From Chitinophagales bacterium (lineage in GTDB: Bacteria > Bacteroidota > Bacteroidia > Chitinophagales > Chitinophagaceae): a DNA stretch of 64,000 nt. Where the stretch lies: positions 9,346 to 73,345 of the forward strand of contig JANXQO010000036.1 in assembly GCA_025353485.1 (NCBI GenBank). The letters run 5' to 3'. Below the pieces are notes generated by a model. That model did no database searches. It was not told where the DNA came from and saw only the letters and a list, made by a program, of their open reading frames with translations. Positions 1,298 to 37,467 of the stretch are shown here, in pieces (within the stretch, counting starts at the first letter, position 1; the number at the start of each line of letters is the position of its first letter). Made by a program: the position numbers and the translations under genes.

Positions 1298-3307
<2,010 letters not shown>

Positions 3308-3337
3308 TATCTTAACTATTATGCTTCAAACTCATTT

Positions 3338-5710: not shown

Positions 5711-6877
5711 ATGATACAAAGACAATTGCACAAAGAAATAATCACTTTAATGAAACAATTTCCTGCGGTGGCTATACTTGGTGCAAGGCAGGTGGGCAAA
5801 ACTACATTGGCAAAACAAATTGCTGCATCGCAAAAAAAACCGTCATTGTATCTTGACCTTGAAAACCCTTTGGATGTACGCAAACTGGCTGACCCTTACA
5901 CGTTTTTATCAGGCCATAAAGACAAATGTATTATTATAGATGAAGTGCAAACCATTCCTTCTTTATTTGCTGTGCTACGCTCAATCATTGATGAAGACAG
6001 GCGTAATGGAAGATTTATATTACTCGGTAGTGCCTCGCCGCAATTGGTAAAAGGTGTTTCAGAATCGTTGGCAGGCAGGATTGCATACCGTGAGCTATCG
6101 CCGGTAAGTTTTATTGAATTGCCGGAAAAAATCAGTCGGGATAAACATTGGCTGAGGGGTGGTTTCCCTCAACCGCTGCTGGCAAAAACTGATAAAGCCG
6201 CTTCTGAATGGATGAGCAGTTTTGTTCGCAGCTATGTTGAAAGAGACCTGGGGTTTTTGTTTGGCGTAGAGCTAACCAGCAATATTATTCGCAGAGTGTT
6301 AAGCATGCTGTCACATGTGAACGGCAATGTTTGGAACGCTGAGATGATGGCACGTTCATTAGGTATAACAGCGCCTACAGTAAACCGGTATATTGATTTT
6401 TTGGAAGGCGCTTTTTTGGTGCACAGGCTGCCTGCTTTTTATGCAAATACCCGTAAGCGGCTGGTAAAAGCGCCGAAGGTATATATCAGGGACAGCGGCC
6501 TGCTGCACCAGCTAAGCGATCTGTCAAATATGCTTTCGCTTAAGGGGCACCCGGTTGTCGGATCTTCGTGGGAAGGATATATTGTTGAGCAGGTAAAGCA
6601 GCTAAAGCCTGCCGGAACTGACTTATATTATTACCGCACGCAAGCAGGGGCAGAGTGTGATATTGTAATTGCAAAGGGAGTGCATCCCGTTGCCTGCGCA
6701 GAAATAAAACTGAACAATGCCCCCAATATCAGCAAAGGAAATTACCAAAGCATTGCCGACCTGAAAACAAAAAAAAATTTTGTGGTAGTACCGGATATAG
6801 CAGAATATAAAACGAAGGAAGGTATTGTTATATGCAACATAGAAACGTTTCTAACAAAATATCTTCCCAAATTGTAG
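5711..6877 (+). CDS. AAA+ ATPase (AAA_14-like) with C-terminal DUF4143 / PD-(D/E)xK-like domain
   Basis: Walker A ILGARQVGKTTLAK, Walker B CIIIDEVQ, and a C-terminal …GAECDIVIA…ACAEIKLN nuclease-like motif. Visibly more G+C-rich than its neighbours. Confidence 0.85.
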   Translation: MIQRQLHKEIITLMKQFPAVAILGARQVGKTTLAKQIAASQKKPSLYLDLENPLDVRKLADPYTFLSGHKDKCIIIDEVQTIPSLFAVLRSIIDEDRRNGRFILLGSASPQLVKGVSESLAGRIAYRELSPVSFIELPEKISRDKHWLRGGFPQPLLAKTDKAASEWMSSFVRSYVERDLGFLFGVELTSNIIRRVLSMLSHVNGNVWNAEMMARSLGITAPTVNRYIDFLEGAFLVHRLPAFYANTRKRLVKAPKVYIRDSGLLHQLSDLSNMLSLKGHPVVGSSWEGYIVEQVKQLKPAGTDLYYYRTQAGAECDIVIAKGVHPVACAEIKLNNAPNISKGNYQSIADLKTKKNFVVVPDIAEYKTKEGIVICNIETFLTKYLPKL

Positions 6878-9390: not shown

Positions 9391-10764
9391 TTATTTCTTC
9401 TTATCAAACAATTCACTCTTAGGAACCACTTTCACTTTATCTTTGCTCTTTAAATTTTTGCTTACAACATCATATGGCCCGGTAATTACTTCATCACCTT
9501 CATTCAATCCTCCTAAAATTTCTATATAATTTATATCCTGGATATCAGTTCTCACTTTTGCTTTTTTCACTGTTCCGTCTTTTTGTAAAATAAAAACCAC
9601 TTCTTCAAGATCATCTGCATCTGTATTTGTTTTTTCATTCGCATTTACAACATCCTTACTTTTTTCGGTGGCAGAACTTTTTTCAGAAGTGCTGTCATTT
9701 TTATCTCTTGTAGTTACAGCATTAATAGGAACAGCTAACCTGTTCTCATGCGTTTTGGTTTGTATGTCAGCGCTGGCACTCATTCCGGGGCGAAAAGGAA
9801 AACTCTTTGGCTTGGATGGATCCATCAGATCTTTGTATGATTCCGGAAGCAGCCGTATGTAAACTTTATAGTTGGTTACATCGGTACCGGTAGAAGTTTG
9901 TAAAGAGGCAGCGCCATTATTGCTGCTGGCTATTTGCGTAACGATGCCTTTAAATTTCCTGTTGTTGTATGCATCCACTTCTACCGATGCGCTGTCACCT
10001 AAGTGTATTTTAGGAATGTCGTTTTCGCCAACATCAACTCTTACTTCAATTTTCCGCAGGTCGGCAATACGCATCATTTCTGTTCCTGCCATCATTGAGC
10101 TGCCCACAACTCTTTCCCCTTTTTTTACATTTAATAAACTTACAACTCCTTCCATCGGCGAAACCAAAGTTGCACGGCTTATATCTTTATTTGCTTTTGA
10201 TAAAGCGGCTCTTGCACTTTGTACACTTGCCTGGCTGCCGCGGATGGTTTGTTTGGCAGCATTAAAATTTGCCTGTGCAGATTTGTATGCAGCATCAGCA
10301 GTATTAAATTCACTTTGAGAAATTACTTTATCATCAAGCAATTGCTTTTGCATATCATAGGTCTTCTTTGCCTGTTCAAGCTGTGCTCTGGAAGCTTCAA
10401 TAGATGCGGAAACATTTGCAACCTGCGCCTGCTGCTGGTTTACCACTGCCGATGCCTGGTCTCTTTGCGTTGCATAAATGTCTGCGTAAATGCGTGCAAG
10501 TACCTGGCCTTTTTTTACACTGTCACCTTCTACAACATTCAGTTCTACAATTTCTCCTGAAATATCCGGGCTAAGTTTTACTTCTACTTCGGGATATACT
10601 TTGCCGCTGGCATTTACCGTTTCCACAATGGTGCGTTTAGTTGCTTTTTCTGTGCTCACTTTCACGCCTTCGTCTTTACCAAGCACACCTGCTTTTTTTA
10701 ATATCACCAATAAAATAATCAATCCCACTAAAGAAAAGATTATCCATTTTAAAGTTTTATTCAT
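9391..10764 (-). CDS. Efflux transporter periplasmic adaptor (HlyD/MFP family, MacA-like)
   Basis: N-terminal TM anchor, a lipoyl-like segment, a long Ala/Gln-rich coiled coil, then beta-barrel segments. It sits downstream of a TolC gene on the same strand. Confidence 0.85.
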   Translation of the reverse strand: MNKTLKWIIFSLVGLIILLVILKKAGVLGKDEGVKVSTEKATKRTIVETVNASGKVYPEVEVKLSPDISGEIVELNVVEGDSVKKGQVLARIYADIYATQRDQASAVVNQQQAQVANVSASIEASRAQLEQAKKTYDMQKQLLDDKVISQSEFNTADAAYKSAQANFNAAKQTIRGSQASVQSARAALSKANKDISRATLVSPMEGVVSLLNVKKGERVVGSSMMAGTEMMRIADLRKIEVRVDVGENDIPKIHLGDSASVEVDAYNNRKFKGIVTQIASSNNGAASLQTSTGTDVTNYKVYIRLLPESYKDLMDPSKPKSFPFRPGMSASADIQTKTHENRLAVPINAVTTRDKNDSTSEKSSATEKSKDVVNANEKTNTDADDLEEVVFILQKDGTVKKAKVRTDIQDINYIEILGGLNEGDEVITGPYDVVSKNLKSKDKVKVVPKSELFDKKK

Positions 10765-10818: not shown

Positions 10819-10838
10819 ATCCCGATAGCTATCGGGAT
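10819..10838. repeat. Family A palindrome ATCCCGATAGCTATCGGGAT (intergenic copy)
   Basis: Perfect 20-nt palindrome. The same core recurs at 22853-22868 and 36281-36296, with variants at 22718, 15337 and 26569. Confidence 0.85.
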
Positions 10839-11122: not shown

Positions 11123-12574
11123 TTAAAACTTCAACCCCTGCCCTTTATAAAATTCCAATACTTTCATTTTAAAAACATAATCAAATTGGTTAAGCACCAA
11201 TTCAAGCTTAGCCCTGAATAAATTATTTTGATCAGTAATTAATTCAAGTGTCGTCAGCATTCCTATAGTATATCTTTTGGTTGCAAAGTCAAAACTTTTT
11301 TGTGCTGCTTCAACAGATTTTGCAGAAGAATTAAATTTTTCCATCGCAACAATTGCAGAATTGTATGCCTGGTAAATATCCTGTTTTGTAGTTTTATTAT
11401 CAAGATCTTTTTGTAATTCAAGTGTAGTAATATTTAGTTTAGATCTTTCATAATTAGCTCTTGCAGACCACCCGTTAAAAATAGGAACAGAAATATTTAT
11501 GCCTACTGATTGACCAAAATTATTATTAAGCTGCGTTCCAAATGATTCAGATGTAATGTAACCGCTTTTGCTTCCCTTTGTAAATAAAGGCCGTTGCACA
11601 TCAGTAAAGCCACCAGTACCATTGCTAATAACAAGTCCGCTTGGTATGTAACCCGAAAATACCTGCTGGTAAGTTGGCGCTCTAAAATATCCATAATTTG
11701 TACCAAGGCTGAAATATGCACCAATACTGGGATATAAGGCTCCCCATGCAGCTTTTACATTTGCATTGGCAGCTTTTATTTTAAAATCATTTACTCTTTG
11801 TTGCGGCAGATGAGCCAATGCTGATGCATAAACATCTTCAGGTTGCAGGTCTGCAATATTTTCAACAGGTATTTTATCGGCAGTCTGCTCTTCAATATCA
11901 AAAGGTTGTCCTGCATCAATATTCATATAAGCTTTTAAAACAAATTTTGCCTGCGTTACATTTCCTTTTGCAACAATATAATTGGCGCTGTCTCTTGCTA
12001 CCTGTGCTTCAAGTTCAACCGCATTTAATTCCGGCAAAGCGCCGGCCTTCACCTGCTTTTGTACAATATCAAATTGCGCTATTGATTGCTGCACCTGCAC
12101 GGCTGAAATATTTTGTTGTTCACGTGCAAGCAGTATTTGTAAGTAAGCATTGGCAACCGTTAACGCAATATCATTTTTTAATTTTTCTGTTCCTGCTTTT
12201 GCAGCTTCAATATTCCATTGATAGGCAAGCGTAGTATTTCGTTTTGAATACCAGTTAAAAATTTCAACACTGCTTTGAAAATTTAAACTCAGGGAAAGAA
12301 AATTCTGATTCTCTAAAATACCTGTTGACGGATTCTGCGACTTTCCAAAACGGTAGCCATCATTATTGCTGAAGTTGGCAGAAGGATATTTTGAAAGGCT
12401 GCTTTGTTTATAGTTTAGGGCTGCCAGTTTTGCCTGTATCTCATTTTGTTTTACTGAAATATTATTATCCATTGCGTATTGCACGCATTGCAGCAAACTC
12501 CATTTTTGTTGGGCAGCGGCTTTATTAATTAAGCAGGTAATAATGATAAATGAAAAAATAATTCTAAGTAACAT
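11123..12574 (-). CDS. TolC-family outer membrane efflux protein
   Basis: 483 aa with a signal peptide, two tandem TolC-type repeat halves, and a C-terminal …LEFYKGQGLKF aromatic end. Confidence 0.85.
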   Translation of the reverse strand: MLLRIIFSFIIITCLINKAAAQQKWSLLQCVQYAMDNNISVKQNEIQAKLAALNYKQSSLSKYPSANFSNNDGYRFGKSQNPSTGILENQNFLSLSLNFQSSVEIFNWYSKRNTTLAYQWNIEAAKAGTEKLKNDIALTVANAYLQILLAREQQNISAVQVQQSIAQFDIVQKQVKAGALPELNAVELEAQVARDSANYIVAKGNVTQAKFVLKAYMNIDAGQPFDIEEQTADKIPVENIADLQPEDVYASALAHLPQQRVNDFKIKAANANVKAAWGALYPSIGAYFSLGTNYGYFRAPTYQQVFSGYIPSGLVISNGTGGFTDVQRPLFTKGSKSGYITSESFGTQLNNNFGQSVGINISVPIFNGWSARANYERSKLNITTLELQKDLDNKTTKQDIYQAYNSAIVAMEKFNSSAKSVEAAQKSFDFATKRYTIGMLTTLELITDQNNLFRAKLELVLNQFDYVFKMKVLEFYKGQGLKF

Positions 12575-15321: not shown

Positions 15322-15546
15322 TAATTGGTTCCCAATCCCGATAATTATCGGGACGGGATTAAAAGGGAATCCGGTTAAATTCCGGAGCTATCCCCGTAGC
15401 TGTAAGCTAAACCGTGAATCGTGAAAGGGTGAAACGTGAATTCATATTCACTATTGGCCATTGACGGTTCACAACTGCTGAATCTTCTACCACTGTCTTA
15501 TCAGACGGGAAGGTGTTCATCAGGGTGGCAAGCCAGAAGACCTGCC
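15322..15546 (+). promoter_or_regulatory. Cobalamin (B12) riboswitch
   Basis: GGTTCCC…AAAAGGGAATCCGGTTAAATTCCGGAGCTATCCCCGTAGCTGTAAGC core, CCACTG…GGGAAGG, and the B12 box AGCCAGAAGACCTGCC at 15531-15546. It lies upstream of a TonB-dependent receptor. Confidence 0.85.
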
Positions 15547-15655
15547 GTTTACATTAAAATCATTTCAAAGCTTTCGGGTGAAAGGCAGGAGTGTAACGGC
15601 TTTACCGCTTTTATACTACTTTATTATCCGCAAGCAGCCATTAAAATTTCTAAAA

Positions 15656-17584
15656 ATGAAAAAGAAAATTTTATTTGTGGCTGCATGTATTACAGGCAGC
15701 ACACTATTTGCACAGGACAGTACAAAAACATTAAATGAAGTTGTGATCGCAGTTACAAAATTTCCTCAAAAACAAAATGAAACAGGAAAGGTAATAACGG
15801 TTATCACAAAAGAACAATTACAAAAAAGCGCAGGCAAAACTTTGTCGGAAGTTTTAAATCAGCAAGTGGGTATTACAATTAACGGAGCTAATAATAATCT
15901 GGGTACTAATCAAACTTTATACATGCGTGGGGCACATGCTGCCAACACTTTAATATTGGTGGATGGAGTTCCCGTGTATGATGCCTCCGGCGAAACCAAT
16001 CAATTTGATATAAGTAATTTCTCATTGTATAATATAGAACGGATAGAAATATTAAAAGGCGCTCAATCTACTTTGTATGGCTCTGATGCGGTTGCAGGCG
16101 TTATAAATTTGATAACAAAAAAGGGAGGGGATAAGCCAATAAATTTAAACGTAATTCTTTCTGCAGGAAGTTATAACACATATAAAGGTTCATTTGCTTT
16201 TAGCGGAACAAAAAATGATCAAACCTATTTTCTTTCTTATTCAGACATAAACAGTAAAGGTTTTTCTTCAGCATACGACTCGACAGGTAAAAATAATTTT
16301 GATAAAGATGGTTTTAAACAAAACGTGTTGCAGGGAAGTTATGGATGTAAGTTTTCTAAAAAATTAGAAACAGGAATCTATGGTAAATACAGTACAAATA
16401 AAGCCGACATTGATGCCGGTGCGTTTGCCGATGATAAAGATTATACCTATAAATATAAAAATCTGCAAACCGGAGTTTTTATAAATTATAATTATGAAAA
16501 GGGATCAATAAAATTCAATTATAATTATAACCAGTATCAAAGAAATTATTTAGATGATTCATTATCGGTTGGTGGATTTTCAAAATATCAAAGAGGGAAT
16601 TATTTAGGAAAATCTCATTTTGCCGAAGTGTATGCAAACTTTAAACCCTCCACAAATATTGAGTTACTTGCCGGTATTGATTACAGGCGAAATGCAACAA
16701 CCCAAAATTATTTATCAATAAGTTCTTTTGGGCCATTTCAAAGTTTGCCTTTATCGGAAGACAGCATTAAAACAAACCAGGTTAGCACATATGCTTCAAT
16801 GAACCTGAAATTTAAAAATGGTTTTAATACTGAGTTAGGCGGCCGGTGGAATTATCACAATATTTTCGGAAATAATTTTACTTACTCATTTAATCCATCT
16901 TACTTCATAAAAAATAAATTTAAAATATTTGCAAACATTTCTTCCGCATATCGTGTTCCTTCTTTATATCAATTGTATTCGGAGTTTGGCAACAAAAAAT
17001 TACATCCTGAAACTACAACAGGTATAGAAGGAGGAATGCAACTCTTGTCAAAAAATTTTACTGCAAGAGTGGTTTTATTTTACAGGAATAGTAAAGATGT
17101 ATTTGCCTTTTATACTGATCCTGTAACCTATGTTAGTTATTATATAAATGAGGATAAACAAAAAGATAATGGCGCAGAGGCTGATGTAAGCTGGCATTCT
17201 GATAAAATTAGCGCATCAGCAAATTATACGTATGTACATGGAAAAATCTACACAAAAGATTTCAGCAAAGACACTGCTTACAATAATTTATATAGAAGAC
17301 CTGCACATACATTTAATATTACTGTAAGCTACCAGACATCAGAAAACCTTTTTATTTCAACACATTTTAAAACTGTGAATAAATTTTACGAAGGCCAATA
17401 CGCTGCGGCACCTTATCAAATCAATGGTTATTATACATTGGATATTTATGGTGAATATAAATTGGATAAAAAGTGTAAACTGTTTATAGATTTTCAAAAC
17501 ATTACTAATCAAAAATATTTTGATCTGAGAGGATTTAATTCAAAGCGATTTAATTTTAATGCAGGCGTAAATCTCAATTTATAA
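15656..17584 (+). CDS. btuB: TonB-dependent receptor, BtuB-like vitamin B12 transporter
   Basis: Signal peptide MKKKILFVAACITGSTLFAQ, a plug domain (…GAQSTLYGSDAVAGVINLITKKG) and a beta-barrel. It is preceded by the B12 riboswitch. The track start at 15578 lies inside the leader. Confidence 0.85.
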   Translation: MKKKILFVAACITGSTLFAQDSTKTLNEVVIAVTKFPQKQNETGKVITVITKEQLQKSAGKTLSEVLNQQVGITINGANNNLGTNQTLYMRGAHAANTLILVDGVPVYDASGETNQFDISNFSLYNIERIEILKGAQSTLYGSDAVAGVINLITKKGGDKPINLNVILSAGSYNTYKGSFAFSGTKNDQTYFLSYSDINSKGFSSAYDSTGKNNFDKDGFKQNVLQGSYGCKFSKKLETGIYGKYSTNKADIDAGAFADDKDYTYKYKNLQTGVFINYNYEKGSIKFNYNYNQYQRNYLDDSLSVGGFSKYQRGNYLGKSHFAEVYANFKPSTNIELLAGIDYRRNATTQNYLSISSFGPFQSLPLSEDSIKTNQVSTYASMNLKFKNGFNTELGGRWNYHNIFGNNFTYSFNPSYFIKNKFKIFANISSAYRVPSLYQLYSEFGNKKLHPETTTGIEGGMQLLSKNFTARVVLFYRNSKDVFAFYTDPVTYVSYYINEDKQKDNGAEADVSWHSDKISASANYTYVHGKIYTKDFSKDTAYNNLYRRPAHTFNITVSYQTSENLFISTHFKTVNKFYEGQYAAAPYQINGYYTLDIYGEYKLDKKCKLFIDFQNITNQKYFDLRGFNSKRFNFNAGVNLNL

Positions 17585-21761: not shown

Positions 21762-22394
21762 ATGAAAAAATTTTTGCTTATAGATGATCATGCTATCGTT
21801 AGATCAGGTATGAAATTCTGGCTTTCCGCAGAATACAATCCTTCTGAAATTGATGAAGCTGAAAATGGGAAAGAGGCATTCCAAAAAATACAGGACACGG
21901 ATTATGATCTTCTCCTGCTGGATATACATATGCCTGAAACAAATAGTTTTGAGCTACTTAAATCTATTTTAAACACAAAGCCGGATTCCAAAGTGTTGAT
22001 CTTTTCAATGAACTCGGAAAGTATGTATGCCAAAAGATTTATAAAAGCAGGAGCCATGGGATTTGTGTCTAAAGATTGGCCTATAGAAGAACTTAAAAAA
22101 GCTGTTGATCTTATACTCAATAATAAAAAATATTTTAGTAATGCATTTATAGAATCTGCATTGGATGAAAAAATCGGCAAGGAAAATAATAATCCATTTT
22201 CTAATCTATCCGACAGGGAATTTGAAATAACTAATTTATTGCTGGAAGGAAAAGGTGTTGGTGAAATATCAATTTTATTAAATATAAAAAATTCCACAAC
22301 GGGTACCTATAAGGCAAGAATTTTTGAGAAGCTAAACGTACAAAATGTTTTGCAGTTGAATGAGCTTGCAGTTCTTTACGACATTAAAAAATAA
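21762..22394 (+). CDS. Response regulator, NarL/LuxR family
   Basis: REC domain (DDHAIVRSG…LLLLDIHMP) plus a C-terminal LuxR HTH (LSDREFEITNLLLEGKGVGEIS…). Confidence 0.9.
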   Translation: MKKFLLIDDHAIVRSGMKFWLSAEYNPSEIDEAENGKEAFQKIQDTDYDLLLLDIHMPETNSFELLKSILNTKPDSKVLIFSMNSESMYAKRFIKAGAMGFVSKDWPIEELKKAVDLILNNKKYFSNAFIESALDEKIGKENNNPFSNLSDREFEITNLLLEGKGVGEISILLNIKNSTTGTYKARIFEKLNVQNVLQLNELAVLYDIKK

Positions 22395-22445
22395 TAAGAA
22401 TATTTTATTTTTCACAAGTCTCCTTTTAAAAAGGTTTACAGGGTT

Positions 22446-22922
22446 TCATTCCCTGTTCTTTGTATCAATCCAAATGGTAACAGGTCCGTCATTAATTAGA
22501 TGCACTTTCATAGCAGCGCCAAACTCGCCGGTATGTATTATTTTACCAAGGTCATTTGCTAATTGAACAATAAATTTTTCATACAGCGGTATTGCAACTT
22601 CGGCTTTACTTGCTTTTATATAAGAAGGCCGTTTTCCTTTTTTGGTGGAGGCATGCAATGTAAATTGGCTTACTGCTAAAATATCGCCATCAATATCTTT
22701 TACAGAAATGTTGGGCTGCCGATAGCTATCGGCATTATTTTCATCATCAAAAATGCGCAGGTTAACGATCTTGTTACTAAGCCATTTAATGTCATCAATC
22801 GTATCAGCATCTTCAATACCAACAAACACCAGTAATCCTTTTTTAATTTCATCCCGATAGCTATCGGGATTATTATCTATTAAAACACCCGCCTGAAAAA
22901 CTCTTTGTATAACAGCTCTCAT
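22446..22922 (-). CDS. dtd: D-aminoacyl-tRNA deacylase
   Basis: MRAVIQRV…, SQFTL and NDGPVT motifs. At 158 aa it is slightly long because of two in-frame palindrome-encoded segments. Confidence 0.9.
   Translation of the reverse strand: MRAVIQRVFQAGVLIDNNPDSYRDEIKKGLLVFVGIEDADTIDDIKWLSNKIVNLRIFDDENNADSYRQPNISVKDIDGDILAVSQFTLHASTKKGKRPSYIKASKAEVAIPLYEKFIVQLANDLGKIIHTGEFGAAMKVHLINDGPVTIWIDTKNRE
22718..22733. repeat. Family A palindrome variant GCCGATAGCTATCGGC, inside dtd
   Basis: Perfect 16-nt palindrome that is in frame and encodes ADSYRQ. Confidence 0.8.
22851..22870. repeat. Family A palindrome ATCCCGATAGCTATCGGGAT, inside dtd
   Basis: Perfect 20-nt palindrome that is in frame and encodes PDSYRD. 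Confidence 0.85.
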
Positions 22923-26566: not shown

Positions 26567-26585
26567 ATCCCGATACCCATCGGGA
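26567..26585. repeat. Family A palindrome variant (CCCGATACCCATCGGG)
   Basis: Same arms as family A with a different centre. It starts 7 nt after the nrdJ stop. Confidence 0.6.
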
Positions 26586-26639: not shown

Positions 26640-26665
26640 AGCCATCGTAAAAGATGGCTTTTCTT
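26640..26665 (+). terminator. Rho-independent terminator after nrdJ
   Basis: Stem AGCCATC / GATGGCT with loop GTAAAA, followed by TTTTCTT. Confidence 0.6.
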
Positions 26666-26766: not shown

Positions 26767-27459
26767 ATGAAAAAAGTTTTATCCATTTTATTTTTTTCCT
26801 TCTTACTTTTTTTAACTCATGCACAAACCAACCTTCCTAAAGATGCAAAAGTTGAAGGCTCAGTTGTTGACATGCGAAGTAAGCAACCGCAGAATAATGA
26901 ACTGATCGTTTTTAAAAGCCGGAAGAACGGAAACGAATACCAGGCGGTAAGTGACTCATTGGGAAAATTTACTACACGCTTACCTGCAGGAGATAAGTAC
27001 GAGATATTTATAATGGGATTTAAAGATTCAACAAGTTATAATTTAATAGAAATACCTCCGCCCCGGCCTAACGGATTTTATAATAATGCATTTTCTGTAA
27101 ATATAGAATTCGATCCTCCAAAAACATTCATCCTTGATAACGTAGAGTTTGATTTTGGTAAAGCAACACTTCGCCCTGCATCTTATAAAACTTTGGATGA
27201 ATTGGCAGAGTATCTTCAGCGTAAGTCGGATGACAAAATAGAGATTGGCGGACATACGGATAATGTAGGCAGTGAGGCAAAAAATAAAATACTTTCTTTG
27301 GAAAGAGCAAAATCAATTGTAGCATATCTGGTGTCTAAAGGAATTGATGCTGCAAGATTAACTGCTAAAGGTTATGGTTCCATGGAGCCAATAGAAGAAA
27401 ATAATACCGAAGCAGGAAGACAAAAAAACAGGCGATCAGAAGTGAAAATATTGGAATGA
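26767..27459 (+). CDS. OmpA-family protein (N-terminal CarboxypepD_reg-like region + OmpA C-terminal domain)
   Basis: Signal peptide, then the C-terminal motif …GHTDNVGSEAKNKILSLERAKSIVAYLVSKGI…GYGSMEPI…NRRSEVKI. Confidence 0.85.
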   Translation: MKKVLSILFFSFLLFLTHAQTNLPKDAKVEGSVVDMRSKQPQNNELIVFKSRKNGNEYQAVSDSLGKFTTRLPAGDKYEIFIMGFKDSTSYNLIEIPPPRPNGFYNNAFSVNIEFDPPKTFILDNVEFDFGKATLRPASYKTLDELAEYLQRKSDDKIEIGGHTDNVGSEAKNKILSLERAKSIVAYLVSKGIDAARLTAKGYGSMEPIEENNTEAGRQKNRRSEVKILE

Positions 27460-27614
27460 AGTGCCCATCATTATAAAAATAATTTCTTTCTTTAACAGCA
27501 AAATAAATCTTTCGGTTAAAACGGTAAGATAAGTCCACAAGCGGGATAAATCAGTTGTTAATTTTGCCTTCATTGTATAAGAAAGAATTAATTTAGCCCC
27601 TAAAATATATTATT

Positions 27615-28316
27615 ATGAAAAAATACTTTTTATTGATATTTGCCATCGCCACGTTTGGCTTTACGCATGCTCAAACGGCGGATGAAATTGTAAATAAACA
27701 TGTTACAGCTATAGGCGGTTTAGATGCATGGAAAAAAGTGAATTCGATGGTAACCACAGGCACTATAAAAATGCAAAGTGCAGAAATAGGCGTCAGCCAA
27801 ACGATACTTAACGGCAAAGGTTCCCGCCAGGATATTACTGCAATGGGAATGAGCGGTTACCAGATTGTAACTCCTGTTTCGGGTTGGAACTTTATGCCTT
27901 TCCAGGGACAAAAAGCTCCGGAGCCAATAACTGCTGATGAATTAAAAGAAGCCCAGGATGATTTAGATGTACAGGGTAGCCTTATAGATTACAAAGCCAA
28001 GGGCCATACAGTTGAATATCTTGGTACTGATGATGTAGAAGGTGTAGATGCGTATAAATTAAAATTGACTTTGAAGAATGGTAAAGTTCAAACTATATTC
28101 ATTGATCCTAAAAACTATTATATTATCAGAGTAATTACAAAGCAAAAAGCTAATGGTAAAGAAATGGAGGTAACAACCAATATAAGTAATTATCAAAAAT
28201 TACCGGAAGGTATCATGGTTCCCTGGTCAATTGGTTTACCCTTTGGCGAAATGATTATTAGCAAAGTGGAAATTAATAAACCGGTAGATGAGAATATTTT
28301 TAAACCCGCCAAATAA
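27615..28316 (+). CDS. Secreted hypothetical protein (possibly LolA-like / outer-membrane lipoprotein-sorting fold)
   Basis: Signal peptide ending …THAQ, 233 aa, beta-rich. The family assignment comes from overall resemblance only. Confidence 0.6.
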   Translation: MKKYFLLIFAIATFGFTHAQTADEIVNKHVTAIGGLDAWKKVNSMVTTGTIKMQSAEIGVSQTILNGKGSRQDITAMGMSGYQIVTPVSGWNFMPFQGQKAPEPITADELKEAQDDLDVQGSLIDYKAKGHTVEYLGTDDVEGVDAYKLKLTLKNGKVQTIFIDPKNYYIIRVITKQKANGKEMEVTTNISNYQKLPEGIMVPWSIGLPFGEMIISKVEINKPVDENIFKPAK

Positions 28317-28331
28317 AATTGATTGAATAGT

Positions 28332-28358
28332 AACCCGGTTAGGCCGGGTTATTTTTTT
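28332..28358 (+). terminator. Rho-independent terminator
   Basis: AACCCGG-TTAGG-CCGGGTT followed by ATTTTTTT. Confidence 0.85.
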
Positions 28359-28379
28359 ATAATCCTTCAAAACTAATTG

Positions 28380-31300
28380 ATGAACAAAATAATATTTTTT
28401 GCGGCTATAGTTTTATTTGCAAACAACAGTATTGCACAGGTTTCTTCAGCAACATTTGGTACAATGGAAGCCCGCCAGTTAGGACCGGGAACAATGAGCG
28501 GCCGCATAACTGCCATTGATGGCAGCGCCAGCGATGGCAAAACAATTTATGTTGGTACAGCCGGCGGCGGAATTTGGAAATCAACAAATGCTGGCACTAC
28601 CTTCAAGCCCATCTTTGATAAATACTGCCAGTCAATAGGCGCTGTTGCTATCAATCAAAGCAATCCTAATATCGTTTTTGCAGGCACCGGCGAAAGTAAT
28701 ATGAGAAATTCAGTTTCAATTGGCAATGGTTTATATCGTTCAACTGATGCAGGAGACAACTGGACAAAAATAGGTTTAGATAGCACAGAGCATATTGCAA
28801 AAATTATTATTGATCCTAAAAATCCGGATAATATTTATGTAGCAGCTCCCGGACCTTTATGGAGCGATAGCAAACACCGGGGCTTATATAAATCAACCGA
28901 TGGTGGTAAAACATGGGATAAAATTTTATACATAAATGAAAAAGCCGGTTGTGCAGATGTTGCCATAGACCCTCAAAACCCCAACATAATTTTTGCTTCT
29001 ACATGGGAGTTTCGCAGATTGCCATATGCATTTAATTCAGGCGGTACAGGAAGCGGTTTTTATAAAAGTATTGATGGTGGTAAAACATGGAAAGAGTTAA
29101 CCAATGGCCTTCCGCCAAAACCATTTGGACGGATAGCATTTGCACTGGCTCCAAGTTCTCCTCAAAATATGCTGGCAATTGTTGAAAATGCTGCAACCGG
29201 TTTATACATTTCTTCTGATGGTGGAGAAAGCTGGAAAAAACAAAGCGCTACCTCAAATGTTGAAGCCCGTCCATTTTATTTTAGCGTAATACAGGTAGAT
29301 CCAAAAGATCCCAAGAGGGTCTATCGTCCCGCCTATGTATTTTCTTATTCAACAGACGGTGGTTATTCATTTGCAGATGCATCTGATGAAGGCGGTTGGC
29401 TTCACAGTGACATGCATGCGCTTTGGATAAATCCAAATAATACAAATCAATTATACCTCGGTACTGATGGCGGTGTATACTTTAGTTTAGATAAAGGAGC
29501 TACCTGGAGGTTCATACAAAATTTACCGGTTGGTCAGTTTTATCATGTGTCTATTGATAATGAAACGCCTTACAATGTAATGGGCGGATTACAGGATAAC
29601 GGAAGCTGGATTGCGCCATCTTCTGCACCGGGAGGAATTAGCAACAGTAATTGGAAATCTTTATATGGTGGTGATGGATTTTGGGTACAGCCTGATCCCA
29701 TTAATCCTAATATAGTATATGCTGAAGCACAGGGAGCAACTGCTGCACGCATTGATAAACAAACTACAAAATCAGTAAACATAAAGCCACAACAAAGTGC
29801 AGGTGAAGATAAATTAAGGTGGAACTGGAATTCGCCGATAATTATTGGTGCAGCCAACAAAAAAAATCTATACATAGCCTCTCAATATTTATACAGATCA
29901 ACTGACGGGGGCAGAAACTGGACTCGTATTTCACCTGACCTTACTACCAATGATCCAAAAAAACAAAAGCAGGAAAACAGCGGTGGCTTAAGCGCTGATA
30001 ATACATCTGCAGAAAATCATTGCACCATTTTTACCCTTGCTGAATCGCCATTGGATGAAAATATTATTTGGGCCGGAACGGATGATGGCAATTTGCAGTT
30101 TACAACAAATGGTGGAAAGAGCTGGACCAATATTTCAAAAAATTATAGTGCAGCCGGTATTCCTGCGCAAACATGGGTTAGCAGTATAGAACTATCAGGC
30201 TTTGATAAAAATACTTTGTTCGTAACTTTTGATAATCATATGTATGGCGATCATAAAACGTATGTTGCCAAATCAACAGATATGGGCAAAACATGGGGCA
30301 TGTTTTCATCAAAAGAGTTTACAGGGTTTGCACATAAAATAAAAGAAGATATTGTAAATAAAGATCTGCTTTTCCTGGGCACTGAAATGGGATTGTTTAC
30401 AACAGTTGATGGTGGAGCAAACTGGTTCCGCATGAAAAATAATATTCCGGAATATGCGCTGGTACGTGATATTAAAATTGATGTAAAAACAAATGATCTT
30501 ATACTTGCAACGCATGGCAGGGGAATAATGATTGTTGATGATATTTCACCAATAAGAAATCTTACAAAAGATATTATAGATAAAGATGTTTATGTTTTTA
30601 ATAACAAGCCGATCAATTTAACCAATGGTATGTTTGGTGGGGGTGGCTTCCCGGGAACGGGCGGATGGGTAGCCAATAATCGTCCCTCAATACCTCCTGT
30701 TCAATATTATTTAAAAGACAGGGTATCCTCCGGCGAAGTAACAGTTGAAATTTATGATGCCAACAATAAACTTGTACAATCAATACCGGGTAGTAAAAGA
30801 AAAGGTATAAATAAAGTATATTGGAACTTACGTATGAAGCCTCCTAAAGTTGCAACCGGCGGAACAAAAATGGATAACAGCGGTTTTTTTGCTCCTATGG
30901 TTTTACCCGGAGATTATACAATGAAATTAAAAGTGGGAGACAAGGAATATTCATCACCACTTAAATTGGTACATGATGCTTCGCAAAAAGATTTTACTTT
31001 GGAAGATAGAAAATTGCAATATAAAACCGCAATGGACATTTATGCACTTCATGAGCAGCTTGCCAAAGTAGTAGATGATATTAATGGCAAACAAAAAATG
31101 CTTAAGAGAGGGATAGACAGTGCAAATGATAAAAAAGCAAAAGCTTTATTTCAGGAATATAATGACAAACTTGAAAGCTTACGGGGAGAGCTGTTAGGTA
31201 CAAAACAAAAATCAATTTTTGCAGATGAAGAACGTTTACGGGAACGGATAAGCGAAGTTTATGCAGCGGTAGTTCTGCAGGAAGCTGCTCCATCCAATTT

Positions 31301-31469
31301 GCAAATTCAAAGAGTAAATGGATTGCAGCAGGAAGTTAATAAGGCGCAACAAACAAATGAAACCTTAACCAAAACGTATTTTGCAAAAGCTAAAGAAGCA
31401 TTAGATAAAACTGCCGCAATAAAAAAAGAATTACAGCCAAAGCTACATAAGGAGAAAATAAAAAAATAA
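28380..31469 (+). CDS. Secreted BNR/Asp-box repeat protein (sortilin/VPS10-like, 'glycosyl hydrolase BNR repeat' family)
   Basis: At least 9 Asp-box motifs (S-x-D-x-G-x-(T/S)-W), e.g. STDGGKTWDK, SIDGGKTWKE, STDGGRNWTR. Signal peptide present. ATG at 28380 is preferred over the track's TTG at 28377. Confidence 0.85.
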   Translation: MNKIIFFAAIVLFANNSIAQVSSATFGTMEARQLGPGTMSGRITAIDGSASDGKTIYVGTAGGGIWKSTNAGTTFKPIFDKYCQSIGAVAINQSNPNIVFAGTGESNMRNSVSIGNGLYRSTDAGDNWTKIGLDSTEHIAKIIIDPKNPDNIYVAAPGPLWSDSKHRGLYKSTDGGKTWDKILYINEKAGCADVAIDPQNPNIIFASTWEFRRLPYAFNSGGTGSGFYKSIDGGKTWKELTNGLPPKPFGRIAFALAPSSPQNMLAIVENAATGLYISSDGGESWKKQSATSNVEARPFYFSVIQVDPKDPKRVYRPAYVFSYSTDGGYSFADASDEGGWLHSDMHALWINPNNTNQLYLGTDGGVYFSLDKGATWRFIQNLPVGQFYHVSIDNETPYNVMGGLQDNGSWIAPSSAPGGISNSNWKSLYGGDGFWVQPDPINPNIVYAEAQGATAARIDKQTTKSVNIKPQQSAGEDKLRWNWNSPIIIGAANKKNLYIASQYLYRSTDGGRNWTRISPDLTTNDPKKQKQENSGGLSADNTSAENHCTIFTLAESPLDENIIWAGTDDGNLQFTTNGGKSWTNISKNYSAAGIPAQTWVSSIELSGFDKNTLFVTFDNHMYGDHKTYVAKSTDMGKTWGMFSSKEFTGFAHKIKEDIVNKDLLFLGTEMGLFTTVDGGANWFRMKNNIPEYALVRDIKIDVKTNDLILATHGRGIMIVDDISPIRNLTKDIIDKDVYVFNNKPINLTNGMFGGGGFPGTGGWVANNRPSIPPVQYYLKDRVSSGEVTVEIYDANNKLVQSIPGSKRKGINKVYWNLRMKPPKVATGGTKMDNSGFFAPMVLPGDYTMKLKVGDKEYSSPLKLVHDASQKDFTLEDRKLQYKTAMDIYALHEQLAKVVDDINGKQKMLKRGIDSANDKKAKALFQEYNDKLESLRGELLGTKQKSIFADEERLRERISEVYAAVVLQEAAPSNLQIQRVNGLQQEVNKAQQTNETLTKTYFAKAKEALDKTAAIKKELQPKLHKEKIKK

Positions 31470-34417: not shown

Positions 34418-36256
34418 TTAAAAATAATTTATATACCCAAAATGTAATTTAGAAGCTCCCTGCAAATCAAACTTTACATCATTTCGTTTTCCAATTGCAT
34501 AGCTCACATTTACTATTCCAAACTTAGTTTCAAAGCTTAAACCTAACCCTGCCGAAAAAAAATTATTGGTAAAATTAGTTGTTTGAAAATGAGTTTTTGT
34601 AACTCCTATATCAGTAAAACCAAACAGGTAAGAATTGATCCCGGTCAGGTACCTGTATTCTGCTGTAAATATTGCATACTGCGATGCGTAAATACTTTCT
34701 TCATCAAAACCCCTTAATAGTTTACTGCCTCCAATTTGAAATAATTCATTTCTAAAAATATCCTGGCTTTGAAAAACACCTCCATTGATTTCTGTTTTTA
34801 AGGTACTTTTTTTAGCCACAGGAAAATAATGTGCTGCATTAAATATTATACGGAATTGATAGGTATTTAATGTAAAAGAATCATAAAGAGAACTGAATTT
34901 AAAAGGTGGCGCAGCCGGGTCTTTCAAGTTGGCTATTTCATTGTTAATGAAAATCTTTTTTAAGCCAATTGCTGTAACAATTTTTAATTCATTCCCTTCT
35001 CTTGGATTGTACAGGTAGTTTGTATTTATCCATTCATAATTTATTCCAAGGCTGTTTGCGGTAACATCAATATTTGCAGGAAGCCTTTTTGTTATTTTAA
35101 TCTGGTTGGTGTCAAATCCGCCGGATAGTAAATAAGTTCTTTGATTTTGTAAAAATATTTTGCCTGATTGATTGGCTGATAAAATATACAAGAGGCCGGC
35201 TTGTGCATTTATCTGCAAATAAGAAGAATCTCTTTTAAGCAGATCTAAAGTAAGATCAATACCAAATGGCGAATTTAAAATATAAGGATGCTGGTAACCG
35301 AGATTTAATTTTGGAGATTGTTTTTGCAATTGCTGCCAGTTAAGCAAAATGCTTTCACCTGTACCCAAAGCATTTTTTAAATTTAGATTCACATCAGCCG
35401 TTACCTGTAATTTACCCGTTTGCGCATTGCCGGGTAAAAAGCCAATTAAAAAATTTACCTGGCTGCTGCGTTTTTGTTGCAGGTACAAATTTAAGACAGA
35501 ACCGGAGCCTAGCATATTCAAATCCCAATGTTGTTGTTCCTGCAGGTAAGGAAGTTCCAAAAGTTTTTTGCTGATATTTTGTAATTTATTTTTATCGTAA
35601 AGGCTTCCTTTTTCAATACCAAGATATCGCTGCAAAAAAAAATTTTTAATTTTTACTTTTCCATATACACGAATACTGTCAATAAAATATAAGGGCCCTT
35701 TATCTATTTTTAGCAGCGCTTTTATTTTATCTTCTTCAATTTTAATACTGTCTAATTTTATTGCAGCAAAAGGATATCCTCTTGTTTCATAATAGGCTAA
35801 AATTTTTTGTTGCCGGGTTTGCAGTTGAACGAAATCCATTTTAGTATTTTGAAATACCCTGGTGTTCCACCCTGTTTCATTCAGCAGCTTTTTATCTATA
35901 CTATCAGTAATTATTTCGAACCATTTATACTGCACCCCTAAATATAAATTGATGTATGCTGAAGTTGAGTCATAAAACAGCGAGTCTATTGATGCAGCGG
36001 GATATCCTTTAGCAGTAAGTATTCCGGGTATCCTGAATATATAATCCGTGCAATGCTCCCTGTTGGAGAAAGAAGTTTGAAGATTGAGAGATTGCATCCT
36101 GTTTAATTTACTGTTTTGTGATAAGGAACTATCTTTGTCAACAAAATGTATCACCAGGGGATAATTATTTTGGGAAAAAACGGCTGATCTATTTAAGCAA
36201 CAGAATGAGATGAATAAAATATAAAAATGCCAATATTTTCTTTGGTAGGCTTTCAT
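34418..36256 (-). CDS. Omp85/BamA-family outer membrane protein (POTRA + surface-antigen beta-barrel)
   Basis: 612 aa with a signal peptide and an alternating beta-strand pattern. The C-terminal beta-signal is …LHFGYINYF. Confidence 0.75.
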   Translation of the reverse strand: MKAYQRKYWHFYILFISFCCLNRSAVFSQNNYPLVIHFVDKDSSLSQNSKLNRMQSLNLQTSFSNREHCTDYIFRIPGILTAKGYPAASIDSLFYDSTSAYINLYLGVQYKWFEIITDSIDKKLLNETGWNTRVFQNTKMDFVQLQTRQQKILAYYETRGYPFAAIKLDSIKIEEDKIKALLKIDKGPLYFIDSIRVYGKVKIKNFFLQRYLGIEKGSLYDKNKLQNISKKLLELPYLQEQQHWDLNMLGSGSVLNLYLQQKRSSQVNFLIGFLPGNAQTGKLQVTADVNLNLKNALGTGESILLNWQQLQKQSPKLNLGYQHPYILNSPFGIDLTLDLLKRDSSYLQINAQAGLLYILSANQSGKIFLQNQRTYLLSGGFDTNQIKITKRLPANIDVTANSLGINYEWINTNYLYNPREGNELKIVTAIGLKKIFINNEIANLKDPAAPPFKFSSLYDSFTLNTYQFRIIFNAAHYFPVAKKSTLKTEINGGVFQSQDIFRNELFQIGGSKLLRGFDEESIYASQYAIFTAEYRYLTGINSYLFGFTDIGVTKTHFQTTNFTNNFFSAGLGLSFETKFGIVNVSYAIGKRNDVKFDLQGASKLHFGYINYF

Positions 36257-36278: not shown

Positions 36279-36297
36279 ATCCCGATAGCTATCGGGA
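36279..36297. repeat. Family A palindrome (intergenic copy)
   Basis: ATCCCGATAGCTATCGGGA in the divergent Omp85/hemW spacer. Confidence 0.85.
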
Positions 36298-36312: not shown

Positions 36313-37467
36313 TTGCCCGGCATATATTTTCATATTCCTTTTTGCAAACAGGCTTGTCATTATTGCAATTTTCATTTTTCTACTTCTGTAAAACAAAAAG
36401 ATGAAATGATTATTGCAATAGCTAACGAAATAAAACTTATAAAAATCTTACCTGCCGGGCAAGATTTGGAGAGGGCAGACACAATTTATTTTGGTGGAGG
36501 TACGCCCAGTTTATTAACGGCTTATGAGATAAATAAATTGTTGGATACCGTCCGTCAATATTTTGTAGTAAGTGAAGATGCGGAAATTACTTTAGAGGCA
36601 AATCCCGATGATATCAATGAAATAAAATTAGCAGAATGGAAATCAATTGGCATAAACCGTTTCAGTATAGGTATTCAATCTTTTAAACAGGAAGATCTTG
36701 TATGGATGAACAGGGCACACAATGCAGAACAGGCATCACGTTGTATTCAATTGGTTAAAAACACAGGCTTTCAAAATTATTCCGTTGATCTTATTTATGG
36801 TACTCCAACTTTAACCGATGATGATTGGAAAAAAAATGTTCAAACAATTATTGATCTTAATGTGCCTCATATTTCGTGTTATGCACTAACTGTAGAAGCG
36901 CAAACGGCCCTGCAAAAAATGATCGCATTAAAAAAGAAAGAAGATGTGGATCCGGGAAAACAGGCCTCTCAATTTTTATTATTAACACGCTGGCTTAAGG
37001 ATGCAGGATATGAGCATTATGAAATTTCTAATTTTGCAAAACCCGGATACAGAAGCAAACATAACAGCAGTTATTGGCAGGGTAAATCTTACATAGGCAT
37101 TGGCCCTTCAGCACATTCGTTTGATGGAAATTCACGGAAATGGAATGTGAGTAATAATGCACTCTATATTCAATCGCTACAAAAAAATAATGTTCCTTAT
37201 GAAGAAGAAAAACTTTCTGAGGTACAAAAACTGAATGAATTTATCATGACTTCTTTGCGTACCATAGAAGGAATTGATCTTAATTATGTAGAGAAAAAAT
37301 TTGGCAAAGAAAAAAGAGATAAACTGCAGGCTATAAGCAGTAAGCATATTCAAAACCACAAACTACAAACTACAAACCACAAACTAATATTAACTAACGA
37401 AGGAAAATTATTTGCAGACGGTATTGCAGCAGATCTGTTTTTTGAAGAAAAACAATTAGTGCTTTAA
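36313..37467 (+). CDS. hemW: Radical SAM heme chaperone HemW (HemN-like, oxygen-independent coproporphyrinogen oxidase family)
   Basis: IYFHIPFCKQACHYCNFH cluster motif and GGGTPS. The start appears to be TTG, since no in-frame ATG lies upstream. Confidence 0.85.
   Translation: MPGIYFHIPFCKQACHYCNFHFSTSVKQKDEMIIAIANEIKLIKILPAGQDLERADTIYFGGGTPSLLTAYEINKLLDTVRQYFVVSEDAEITLEANPDDINEIKLAEWKSIGINRFSIGIQSFKQEDLVWMNRAHNAEQASRCIQLVKNTGFQNYSVDLIYGTPTLTDDDWKKNVQTIIDLNVPHISCYALTVEAQTALQKMIALKKKEDVDPGKQASQFLLLTRWLKDAGYEHYEISNFAKPGYRSKHNSSYWQGKSYIGIGPSAHSFDGNSRKWNVSNNALYIQSLQKNNVPYEEEKLSEVQKLNEFIMTSLRTIEGIDLNYVEKKFGKEKRDKLQAISSKHIQNHKLQTTNHKLILTNEGKLFADGIAADLFFEEKQLVL
37351..37385. repeat. Heptanucleotide tandem repeat (ACAAACY) x5 inside the hemW 3' end
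   Basis: CAAAACC ACAAACT ACAAACT ACAAACC ACAAACT, which translates as QNHKLQTTNHKL. Confidence 0.85.

Follow-up and report, generated by a model that had tools for sequence, protein, structure and literature searches.

What is a short palindrome doing twice, and both times in frame, inside dtd, the gene for D-aminoacyl-tRNA deacylase? The gene lies in a stretch of 64,000 nt, here called the window, from a metagenome-assembled genome (MAG) of a Chitinophagales bacterium (Chitinophagaceae; GCA_025353485.1, contig JANXQO010000036.1). The window is ordinary chromosomal DNA of 35% G+C that includes gyrB, an efflux operon, nrdJ and gldLMN. An initial annotation had read the two palindromes, encoding PDSYRD and ADSYRQ, as in-frame mini-insertions of a spreading palindromic repeat. 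Both do lie in frame in a minus-strand open reading frame (ORF) of 158 aa and encode these peptides, and the reading as insertions is supported by orthologues, which are polymorphic at both sites. At a probability of roughly 0.6, we conclude that the dtd palindromes are copies of an interspersed 18-bp repeat that is non-autonomous and probably moved by an enzyme encoded elsewhere.

The palindrome was originally described as a 16-mer, CCCGATAGCTATCGGG, found exactly at window positions 10821, 22853 and 36281, with two-mismatch variants at 15337 (CCCGATAATTATCGGG), 22718 (GCCGATAGCTATCGGC) and 26569 (CCCGATACCCATCGGG). Our re-check reproduced all of these coordinates and sequences, but not the unit size: because a T...A pair borders all six copies, the repeat unit is the 18-nt perfect palindrome TCCCGATAGCTATCGGGA, which in single-stranded form makes a hairpin of a 7-bp stem and a 4-nt loop. 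The six window matches to the 16-mer at two or fewer mismatches compare with an average of 0.00 in 100 dinucleotide-preserving shuffles, so the proposed overrepresentation holds in the window; it also holds in the sense that the repeat is spread across a whole phylum (see below). Mismatches of the six copies to the 18-mer are 0, 0, 0, 2, 2 and 2, the next matches coming only at 5-6 mismatches, the chance level. Repeat density in this genome is about one copy per 10-16 kb.

Insertions in dtd and their boundaries

The two dtd copies are 135 nt apart, and the SQFTL and NDGPVT motifs are intact, leaving the catalytic motifs untouched. Site 1 reads AA(T CCC GAT AGC TAT CGG GA)T, with the 18-mer in parentheses, and gives N-PDSYR-D at residues 18-24; site 2 encodes N-ADSYR-Q at residues 63-69. 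Among 120 close Dtd homologues (73-97% identity) the protein is 150, 153, 154, 155, 158 or 160 aa long, and its length depends only on whether neither, one or both of the sites are filled. Site 1 is N-K-I-K-S when empty and N-(HPDGYRE)-K-S when filled; it is empty in L001 and L002 (NKIKS or NIKS; L numbers designate the compared loci) and filled in L003 and L213 (HPDGYRE-KS). Site 2 is N-K-V-P when empty and N-(NADSYRQ)-P when filled. As a baseline we took the Dtd genes read from 80 metagenome loci, mostly distant 150-aa orthologues that were not used for codon-level work: 60 of 67 Bacteroidota Dtd genes have exactly this length, and the only insert carriers among the 67 are L126 and L127, with site 2 filled. 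Dtd proteins without the palindrome are thus also without the extra residues. Judged from these alignments, both dtd copies are derived in-frame insertions.

Structural comparison places both inserts in loops. At the two sites, alignments of solved Dtd structures (2dbo and 1j7g) show gaps of 3 and 5 residues, the very length differences given in the initial annotation. In an AlphaFold (AF2) model of the window protein (predicted local-distance difference test score, pLDDT, 80), site 1 forms the turn between strands 2-15 and 22-26 and site 2 lies in a coil (62-71) of low pLDDT. Site 1 of the window has gained only three residues because of a later loss of 6 nt, the following two codons (KS).

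The number of gains at these sites is harder to read. A neighbour-joining tree of the 120 Dtd proteins (about 140 columns) resolves too poorly to count independent gains, and we do not trust the 12 changes at site 2 that it returned. A G..C variant of the site-2 copy is common to nine lineages, which points to one old insertion. In these nine lineages the insert retains the rare codons GCC, AGC, CGG and CAG; most pairs are identical at 6/6 or 7/7 synonymous codons within it (lowest 3/4), and the rest of dtd has 43-66% synonymous identity in all but the three closest pairs. The commonest change in the site-2 insert, TAT to AAT, falls at a loop position. In the L212 lineage it is site 1 that has decayed. 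Where the dtd palindromes are intact, the lineage has further copies nearby, and lineages with decayed ones have none in 13-20 kb.

What exactly does an insertion do to its target? Six comparisons of empty with filled sites, or of nested copies, show the 18-mer in place of exactly 3 nt, a net gain of 15 nt; they comprise nrdJ, the two dtd sites and three copies nested within older copies. The nrdJ copy lies inside the gene in L210, and the site is empty in the sister L209, the window, L205 and L212. Here GAA CA(ATT)G GCA has become GAA CA(TCCCGATAACTATCGGGA)G GCA, with nothing else altered and no microhomology at the junctions. At dtd site 1, GAT AA(CAT)A AAA has become GAT CA(18-mer)A AAA, and at site 2, AAT AA(GGT)G CCT, encoding K-V-P, has become AAT AA(18-mer)G CCC. 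The nested copies come from three unrelated genomes (L036, L037 and L250), in each of which an 18-mer replaces exactly three bases of the older copy; because no reading frame constrains such sites, the loss of 3 bp comes from the event itself and not from selection. We found no target-site duplication, the direct repeats beside some copies being short tandem-repeat tracts or duplicated protein segments. Each copy that we examined is a derived insertion.

This exchange accounts for the harmlessness of the repeat to reading frames. Replacement of 3 nt by 18 nt adds 15 nt, or five residues, so the frame is never shifted; only the PDSYR or the PIAIG phase is found inside ORFs because the third phase contains TAG; and orientation does not matter, since the palindrome is the same on both strands.

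We noted several other features around dtd. A bidirectional terminator-like hairpin, ACAGGGTTTCATTCCCTGT, lies at 22438-22456 between dtd and a convergent response-regulator gene. On the plus strand a T-rich tail follows each dtd palindrome, and a simple scan calls both terminator-like, antisense to dtd. Directly downstream of dtd in two relatives (L209:10588-10962 and L210:10513-10887) is a small PDDEXK_3 gene (GxxExxY-type nuclease fold), which is not in the window and for which we saw no link to the palindrome.

Copies across Bacteroidota: distribution, variation and turnover

An exact-match scan of one genome per species over 185,579 species gave at least 120 matching blocks, and all of those listed are Bacteroidota, by title or, for two with ambiguous titles, by base composition. 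These two are L101, 'uncultured bacterium' (39% G+C), and L112, a Variovorax paradoxus MAG contig, which is almost certainly mis-binned since it combines 35% G+C with the Bacteroidota palindrome. Matches come from Bacteroidales, Flavobacteriales, Chitinophagales, Sphingobacteriales, Cytophagales and Saprospiraceae, in host genomes of 29-59% G+C. The family occurs in all major orders of Bacteroidota and is not specific to the window's lineage. Abundance is uneven: 467 kb of unselected Bacteroidota DNA around dtd held no copy outside dtd, implying that most genomes have few copies and some have many. Copy-rich cases include the window, UBA3022 (five copies in 8 kb), an Algoriphagus, a Neolewinella internal transcribed spacer and a Mu-like phage. 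This phage, with at least five copies, is among 46 viral stretches; we considered a phage origin, but there is no enzyme candidate among them.

By crude ORF calls, 83 copies (about 86%) are intergenic and 14 lie inside ORFs; the non-coding share of these genomes is about 12% by our estimate. The intergenic copies fall in tandem (52), convergent (17) and divergent (14) spacers, roughly the usual proportions, so the repeat is strongly extragenic but not tied to 3' ends. Two of the window's four non-coding copies are in divergent spacers. We rejected an intrinsic terminator as the identity of the repeat: T-rich tails occur at 11% per side versus 15% at control positions, and copies are found also in ORFs and divergent spacers. 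The nrdJ gene of the window has a terminator hairpin of its own (26640-26659), downstream of the copy at 26568.

In-frame copies inside ORFs were found in GlnRS, RNase HII, HemC, L-serine dehydratase (SdaA), an AroA-like enzyme and NrdJ, as well as in a SucB linker, a receiver domain and a sigma-factor tail. At the GlnRS copy the alignment with PDB structures has a 4-residue gap, and the RNase HII and HemC copies lie within larger inserts. A near-identical genome (L260:1177-1194) has, some 60 nt past the window's right end, a two-mismatch copy in the PIAIG phase, TCCCCATAACTATCGGGA, which encodes IPITIGI in the hydrophobic N-terminal segment of the gene after a DUF58 gene.

Structured RNAs also host copies. 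In the cobalamin riboswitch of the window, cmscan places an 11-nt insertion relative to the model at the first hairpin, and in the predicted fold the 18-mer hairpin stacks on the native UCCC/GGGA stem. This stem keeps a loop of AA, the 18-mer and C, where the Rfam consensus loop has 6 nt; by this alignment and predicted fold, the copy is consistent with an 18-for-3 replacement. In the 16S-23S spacer of Neolewinella aquimaris (L085:440-720), three C..G-type copies sit in a duplicated unit of about 127 nt after two tRNA genes. A helix tip of the 23S rRNA in the same contig (L085:1680-1697) reads CCCCGATACCTATCGGGG, 4 nt more than the 6-nt loop of the bacterial large-subunit model; it may be an insertion, a partial conversion or chance. 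The rRNA was rejected as a master copy, as this is the only 23S with a look-alike tip, which is not phylum-wide.

Variation among copies follows the hairpin. Across 75 variant copies, mismatches per position number 32, 15, 1, 1, 3, 0 and 2 in the left arm, 8, 9, 12 and 9 in the loop, and 1, 0, 1, 2, 3, 14 and 30 in the right arm; that is, the loop varies freely, the inner stem CCGAT/ATCGG stays fixed, and changes in the two outer pairs go together. Compensatory changes affect three pairs (12 cells), a value that none of 500 shuffles reached; because the copy set was chosen by likeness to the palindrome, this covariation lends support without being proof. Of 134 copies, 129 have a complementary flanking pair, which is T..A in 108; its C..G, A..T and G..C variants tend to be lineage-specific, as with C..G in Neolewinella/Lewinella.

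Copies are clustered. Neighbouring copies less than 150 nt apart (38-135 nt) number 15 pairs versus 3.3 expected, and their intervening spacers are unrelated. Old copies and their surroundings are the preferred landing places of new ones, which explains how the 477-nt dtd gene comes to hold two.

The remaining window copies document turnover (Table 1). The copy downstream of nrdJ is orthologous in the sister genomes L205 and L206, which have TCCCGATAGCCATCGGGA at the same place, with drift in the loop only; in L212 the spacer is the same but without the 18-mer, and in L207 the whole segment is missing. The hemW-spacer copy is reduced in L213 to ataaTCCCG followed by the right flank, the remnant of a 21-nt deletion. 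Between nrdJ and a YcxB gene (26767-31469) the window and its close relatives have genes for an OmpA-family protein, a 233-aa protein and a Sortilin/BNR protein (1030 aa), which are absent from the otherwise syntenic L002.

Table 1. Copies of the 18-bp repeat in the window, with dtd and the riboswitch that host some of them
Feature	Position	Strand	Remarks
dtd, D-aminoacyl-tRNA deacylase, 158 aa	22446..22922	-	PF02580 in all homologues; PDB 2dbo, E=1.2e-32
Cobalamin riboswitch, RF00174	15309..15563	+	86.9 bits; upstream of TonB-dependent receptor gene (15578..17584); hosts the 15336 copy
Perfect 18-mer	10820..10837		extends to the 20-nt palindrome ATCCCGATAGCTATCGGGAT; spacer between OEP/TolC-like gene (11123..12574, -) and HlyD-type adaptor gene (9391..10764, -)
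Variant TCCCGATAATTATCGGGA	15336..15353		symmetric change of AGCT to AATT; terminal loop of the first hairpin of the cobalamin riboswitch
dtd site 2, variant TGCCGATAGCTATCGGCA	22717..22734		in frame; compensatory C:G to G:C at pair 2/17
dtd site 1, perfect TCCCGATAGCTATCGGGA	22852..22869		in frame; extends to the 20-nt palindrome ATCCCGATAGCTATCGGGAT with its flanks
Decaying copy TCCCGATACCCATCGGGA	26568..26585		loop AGCT changed to ACCC, stem intact; starts 9 nt past the nrdJ stop
Perfect 18-mer	36280..36297		56-nt divergent spacer between Omp85/POTRA-like gene (34418..36256, -) and hemW (36313..37467, +)

Several larger or irregular arrangements occur elsewhere. In three Flavobacteriaceae loci (L006:199, L051:3085 and L008:4248) the 18-mer tips a longer, family-specific palindromic repeat with flanks of the GCCCGACCCT...AGGGTAACGC type, so that larger composite elements exist around the same core. 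At L115:1383-1600 and 6097-6230, at L053:1600-2000 and in the flanks of L014, L023, L038 and L045, the palindrome stands within low-complexity short tandem repeats, which are strand-asymmetric (ACTTACAA, CACTCAT, TTGGTTA, GAAAGAT and GATTTC). Mu-like phage contigs (L219:245-271, L241:564-590, L245:9028-9054, and L244 at 2640-2700 and 3286-3312) contain 27-nt forms made of three 9-nt half-units, TCCCGATAG-TCCCGATAG-CTATCGGGA, and also a perfect palindrome of 46 nt that has a single 9-mer in the middle. There are hints here that some events may involve the half-site as a unit.

A proposed mobile hairpin and competing explanations

We propose that the repeat is mobile but non-autonomous and is probably handled as a hairpin of single-stranded DNA (ssDNA). 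The enzyme responsible would be encoded elsewhere in the genome, and its conservation across the phylum would suffice to hold the sequence of the stem constant; the enzyme would open its target by breaks 3 bp apart, favouring unpaired or hairpin-tip DNA and the vicinity of existing copies. Selection then retains copies only in places that tolerate six additional residues or an extended hairpin, namely spacers, surface loops (both dtd sites), low-complexity linkers and RNA hairpin tips (the riboswitch, possibly 23S rRNA). A stronger version, that this is the smallest known mobile DNA element of bacteria, propagated throughout the phylum and into its phages, whose hairpin is swapped for 3 bp by a conserved enzyme, preferentially at hairpin tips and beside existing copies, and whose copies later come under structural constraint, we put forward only tentatively, at somewhat short of even odds.

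A number of observations weigh against a mobile hairpin. First, no enzyme has come to light: a motif scan found no HUH/Y1-like ORF in about 2 Mb of fetched DNA around the loci, and the 30 window ORFs that were scanned, from 127 to 48508, include no transposase. Second, the events are all deduced from comparisons between species, and no movement has been observed. Third, the boundaries are not uniformly clean, as two nested cases resemble 18-for-6 rather than 18-for-3 and the site downstream of nrdJ is not a clean 18-nt event. Fourth, the identity of the core throughout the phylum is unlike known repetitive extragenic palindromic (REP) or MITE (miniature inverted-repeat transposable element) families, which diverge between species. 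Fifth, the old dtd site-2 copy is conserved at synonymous positions, which a selfish, decaying insert would not predict.

The last two points feed the main rival, that the repeat is a functional hairpin or protein-binding site selected by the host, for example in nucleoid organization or supercoiling or in RNA processing, its copies in genes being incidental. An inner stem that is identical in genomes of such different base composition, a kept stem with a variable loop and compensatory outer pairs, and the rare codons and synonymous sites conserved at dtd site 2 in nine lineages would all be natural consequences of such a function. It is difficult, however, to conceive of a common role for protein loops, a riboswitch loop, a possible 23S tip and the spacers of phages and divergent promoters. 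Close relatives differ in the presence of copies, and in some lineages copies have decayed or been half deleted; the copy-free 467 kb around dtd means that most members of the phylum would have few such sites; and the lack of enrichment for T-rich tails means that the copies are not terminators. We consider a host function unlikely as the whole explanation, noting that it is compatible with a mobile origin and may coexist with mobility.

A mobile hairpin might also need no dedicated enzyme. Hairpin ssDNA fragments of existing copies could survive exonucleases and be patched in at replication forks by template switching or short-patch illegitimate recombination, replacing a few target bases. 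That the events are replacements and not pure insertions, that new copies lie on or near old ones, and that scanned ORFs and fetched DNA yielded no transposase would agree with this. Yet patching of this kind would hardly remove a constant 3 bp in six events, and the cleanest case, nrdJ, has no junctional microhomology; nor does it account for the fixation of a single sequence throughout a phylum when other stable hairpins, such as terminators, are not dispersed likewise. We rate this route as quite unlikely, below a host function.

Exact two-fold symmetry without a spacer, together with the 27-nt forms of three half-units in the phage contig, recalls a minimal MITE, in which the two terminal inverted repeats of a DDE insertion sequence (IS), 9 bp each, would stand back to back and be mobilized by that IS. 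We rejected both a MITE and joined IS ends, and regard this explanation as very improbable: in the six events 3 bp of target are lost and there is no target-site duplication, and the covariation of the stem indicates base pairing rather than recognition of an end by a transposase. Solitary half-sites are moreover at chance level, about eight true solitary TCCCGATAG sites against about 15 expected in 1.95 Mb (44 matches were listed, most of them parts of degenerate or nested full copies), and none is at an IS end.

Chance, codon-level convergence or an assembly or adapter artefact, to which only the shortness of the motif lends anything, can be practically dismissed, since shuffles gave zero copies, the same sequence recurs in isolate genomes and in complete ones, produced by many laboratories on many sequencing platforms, and orthologous copies are common to independent assemblies.

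We conclude that a mobile hairpin best accounts for the dtd palindromes, and several consequences would follow. If the stronger version is true, essential proteins would repeatedly receive lineage-specific 5-residue indels from this source, and structured RNAs would receive helix extensions. The repeat accounts for a class of short indels (the PDSYR/PIAIG peptides) that are specific to lineages in conserved Bacteroidota proteins; such indels serve as taxonomic signatures and can lead alignments and gene calling astray. The same repeat extends riboswitch hairpins and possibly rRNA hairpins. The copies form a natural map of the positions in essential proteins that tolerate a six-residue insertion. 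If the 18-for-3 exchange reflects an enzyme, its insertion chemistry would be new, as the target is not duplicated but loses a small, fixed number of bases and the element is only 18 bp long, and the exchange would provide a search image for that enzyme by phylogenetic profiling.

Relation to known palindromic repeats

The palindrome has no family in Rfam 15: none matched it in the window at the gathering score or at E<=1, where the only window matches were the cobalamin riboswitch, a tRNA and MIR7127 (E=0.84, 22204-22310, far below gathering and clear of the copies). We found no description of the repeat in the searchable literature, which omits subscription journals, so that a prior description is possible, and its sequence is absent from the supplementary tables of a survey of HUH enzymes (PMC6006769). 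Its general kind is nonetheless known, as short interspersed palindromes that enter genes in frame are represented by REP sequences, the Rickettsia palindromic elements (RPEs) and HIP1.

RPEs are likewise palindromic repeats found in frame in essential genes and in spacers; the added peptide is tolerated on the protein surface, and there is no transposase within the element. In-frame insertion relative to orthologues, by which RPEs are recognized, is seen here at the two dtd sites, in nrdJ and in GlnRS. RPEs are roughly 100-150 bp long, known only from Rickettsia and divergent between families. The present repeat differs in its 18 bp, its net gain of five residues, its phylum-wide range, its invariant stem and its replacement of 3 bp.

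REP sequences and REPINs, with their REP-associated tyrosine transposases (RAYTs), resemble it in being short, hairpin-forming, mostly extragenic and of high copy number, with compensatory stem changes and an excess of close pairs. Genes occasionally contain REP copies (PMC3733652), and one RAYT subclass, 2.6 (group 5), is specific to Bacteroidetes and has flanking hairpins described as 'atypical' (PMC6006769). A REP is defined by a 5' GT[AG]G or CGTC tag, which stands at the base of a 20-40-bp imperfect palindrome, whereas the flanks of our 134 copies have only the T..A pair, the next position not being conserved, and no GTAG or CGTC. The repeat is moreover a perfect palindrome that does not avoid divergent spacers and keeps its sequence across a phylum, where REP sequences are species-specific. 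REPINs are inverted doublets; the close pairs seen here have unrelated spacers, and orientation is undefined for a perfect palindrome. No RAYT was seen near the repeat in the HUH/Y motif scan of the fetched loci. On its sequence, the repeat is by definition not a REP.

At the ends of IS200/IS605 elements and their miniature derivatives, too, a DNA hairpin with a defined stem is recognized and no target-site duplication arises, and the single-strand intermediates would favour replication forks and hairpin tips. These elements differ in having two different ends, a specific target tetra- or pentanucleotide and no target deletion, and we found no TnpA in the fetched DNA.

HIP1 (GCGATCGC) of cyanobacteria is a palindrome that is conserved and overrepresented across a phylum, both in coding and in non-coding DNA, and its function is not settled (PMC5861425, PMC4390886). 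It is 8 bp long, reaches more than one copy per gene and is tied to methyltransferase sites. HIP1 has been proposed to spread by substitution; our repeat, in contrast, is an 18-bp, length-changing insertion, mostly intergenic and sparse in most genomes. It would thus stand beside HIP1 as a second palindrome conserved at phylum level, one whose insertions can be dated one by one. From REP sequences, RPEs and HIP1 alike, the repeat differs in its size, its symmetry, its target signature and the breadth of its taxonomic range.

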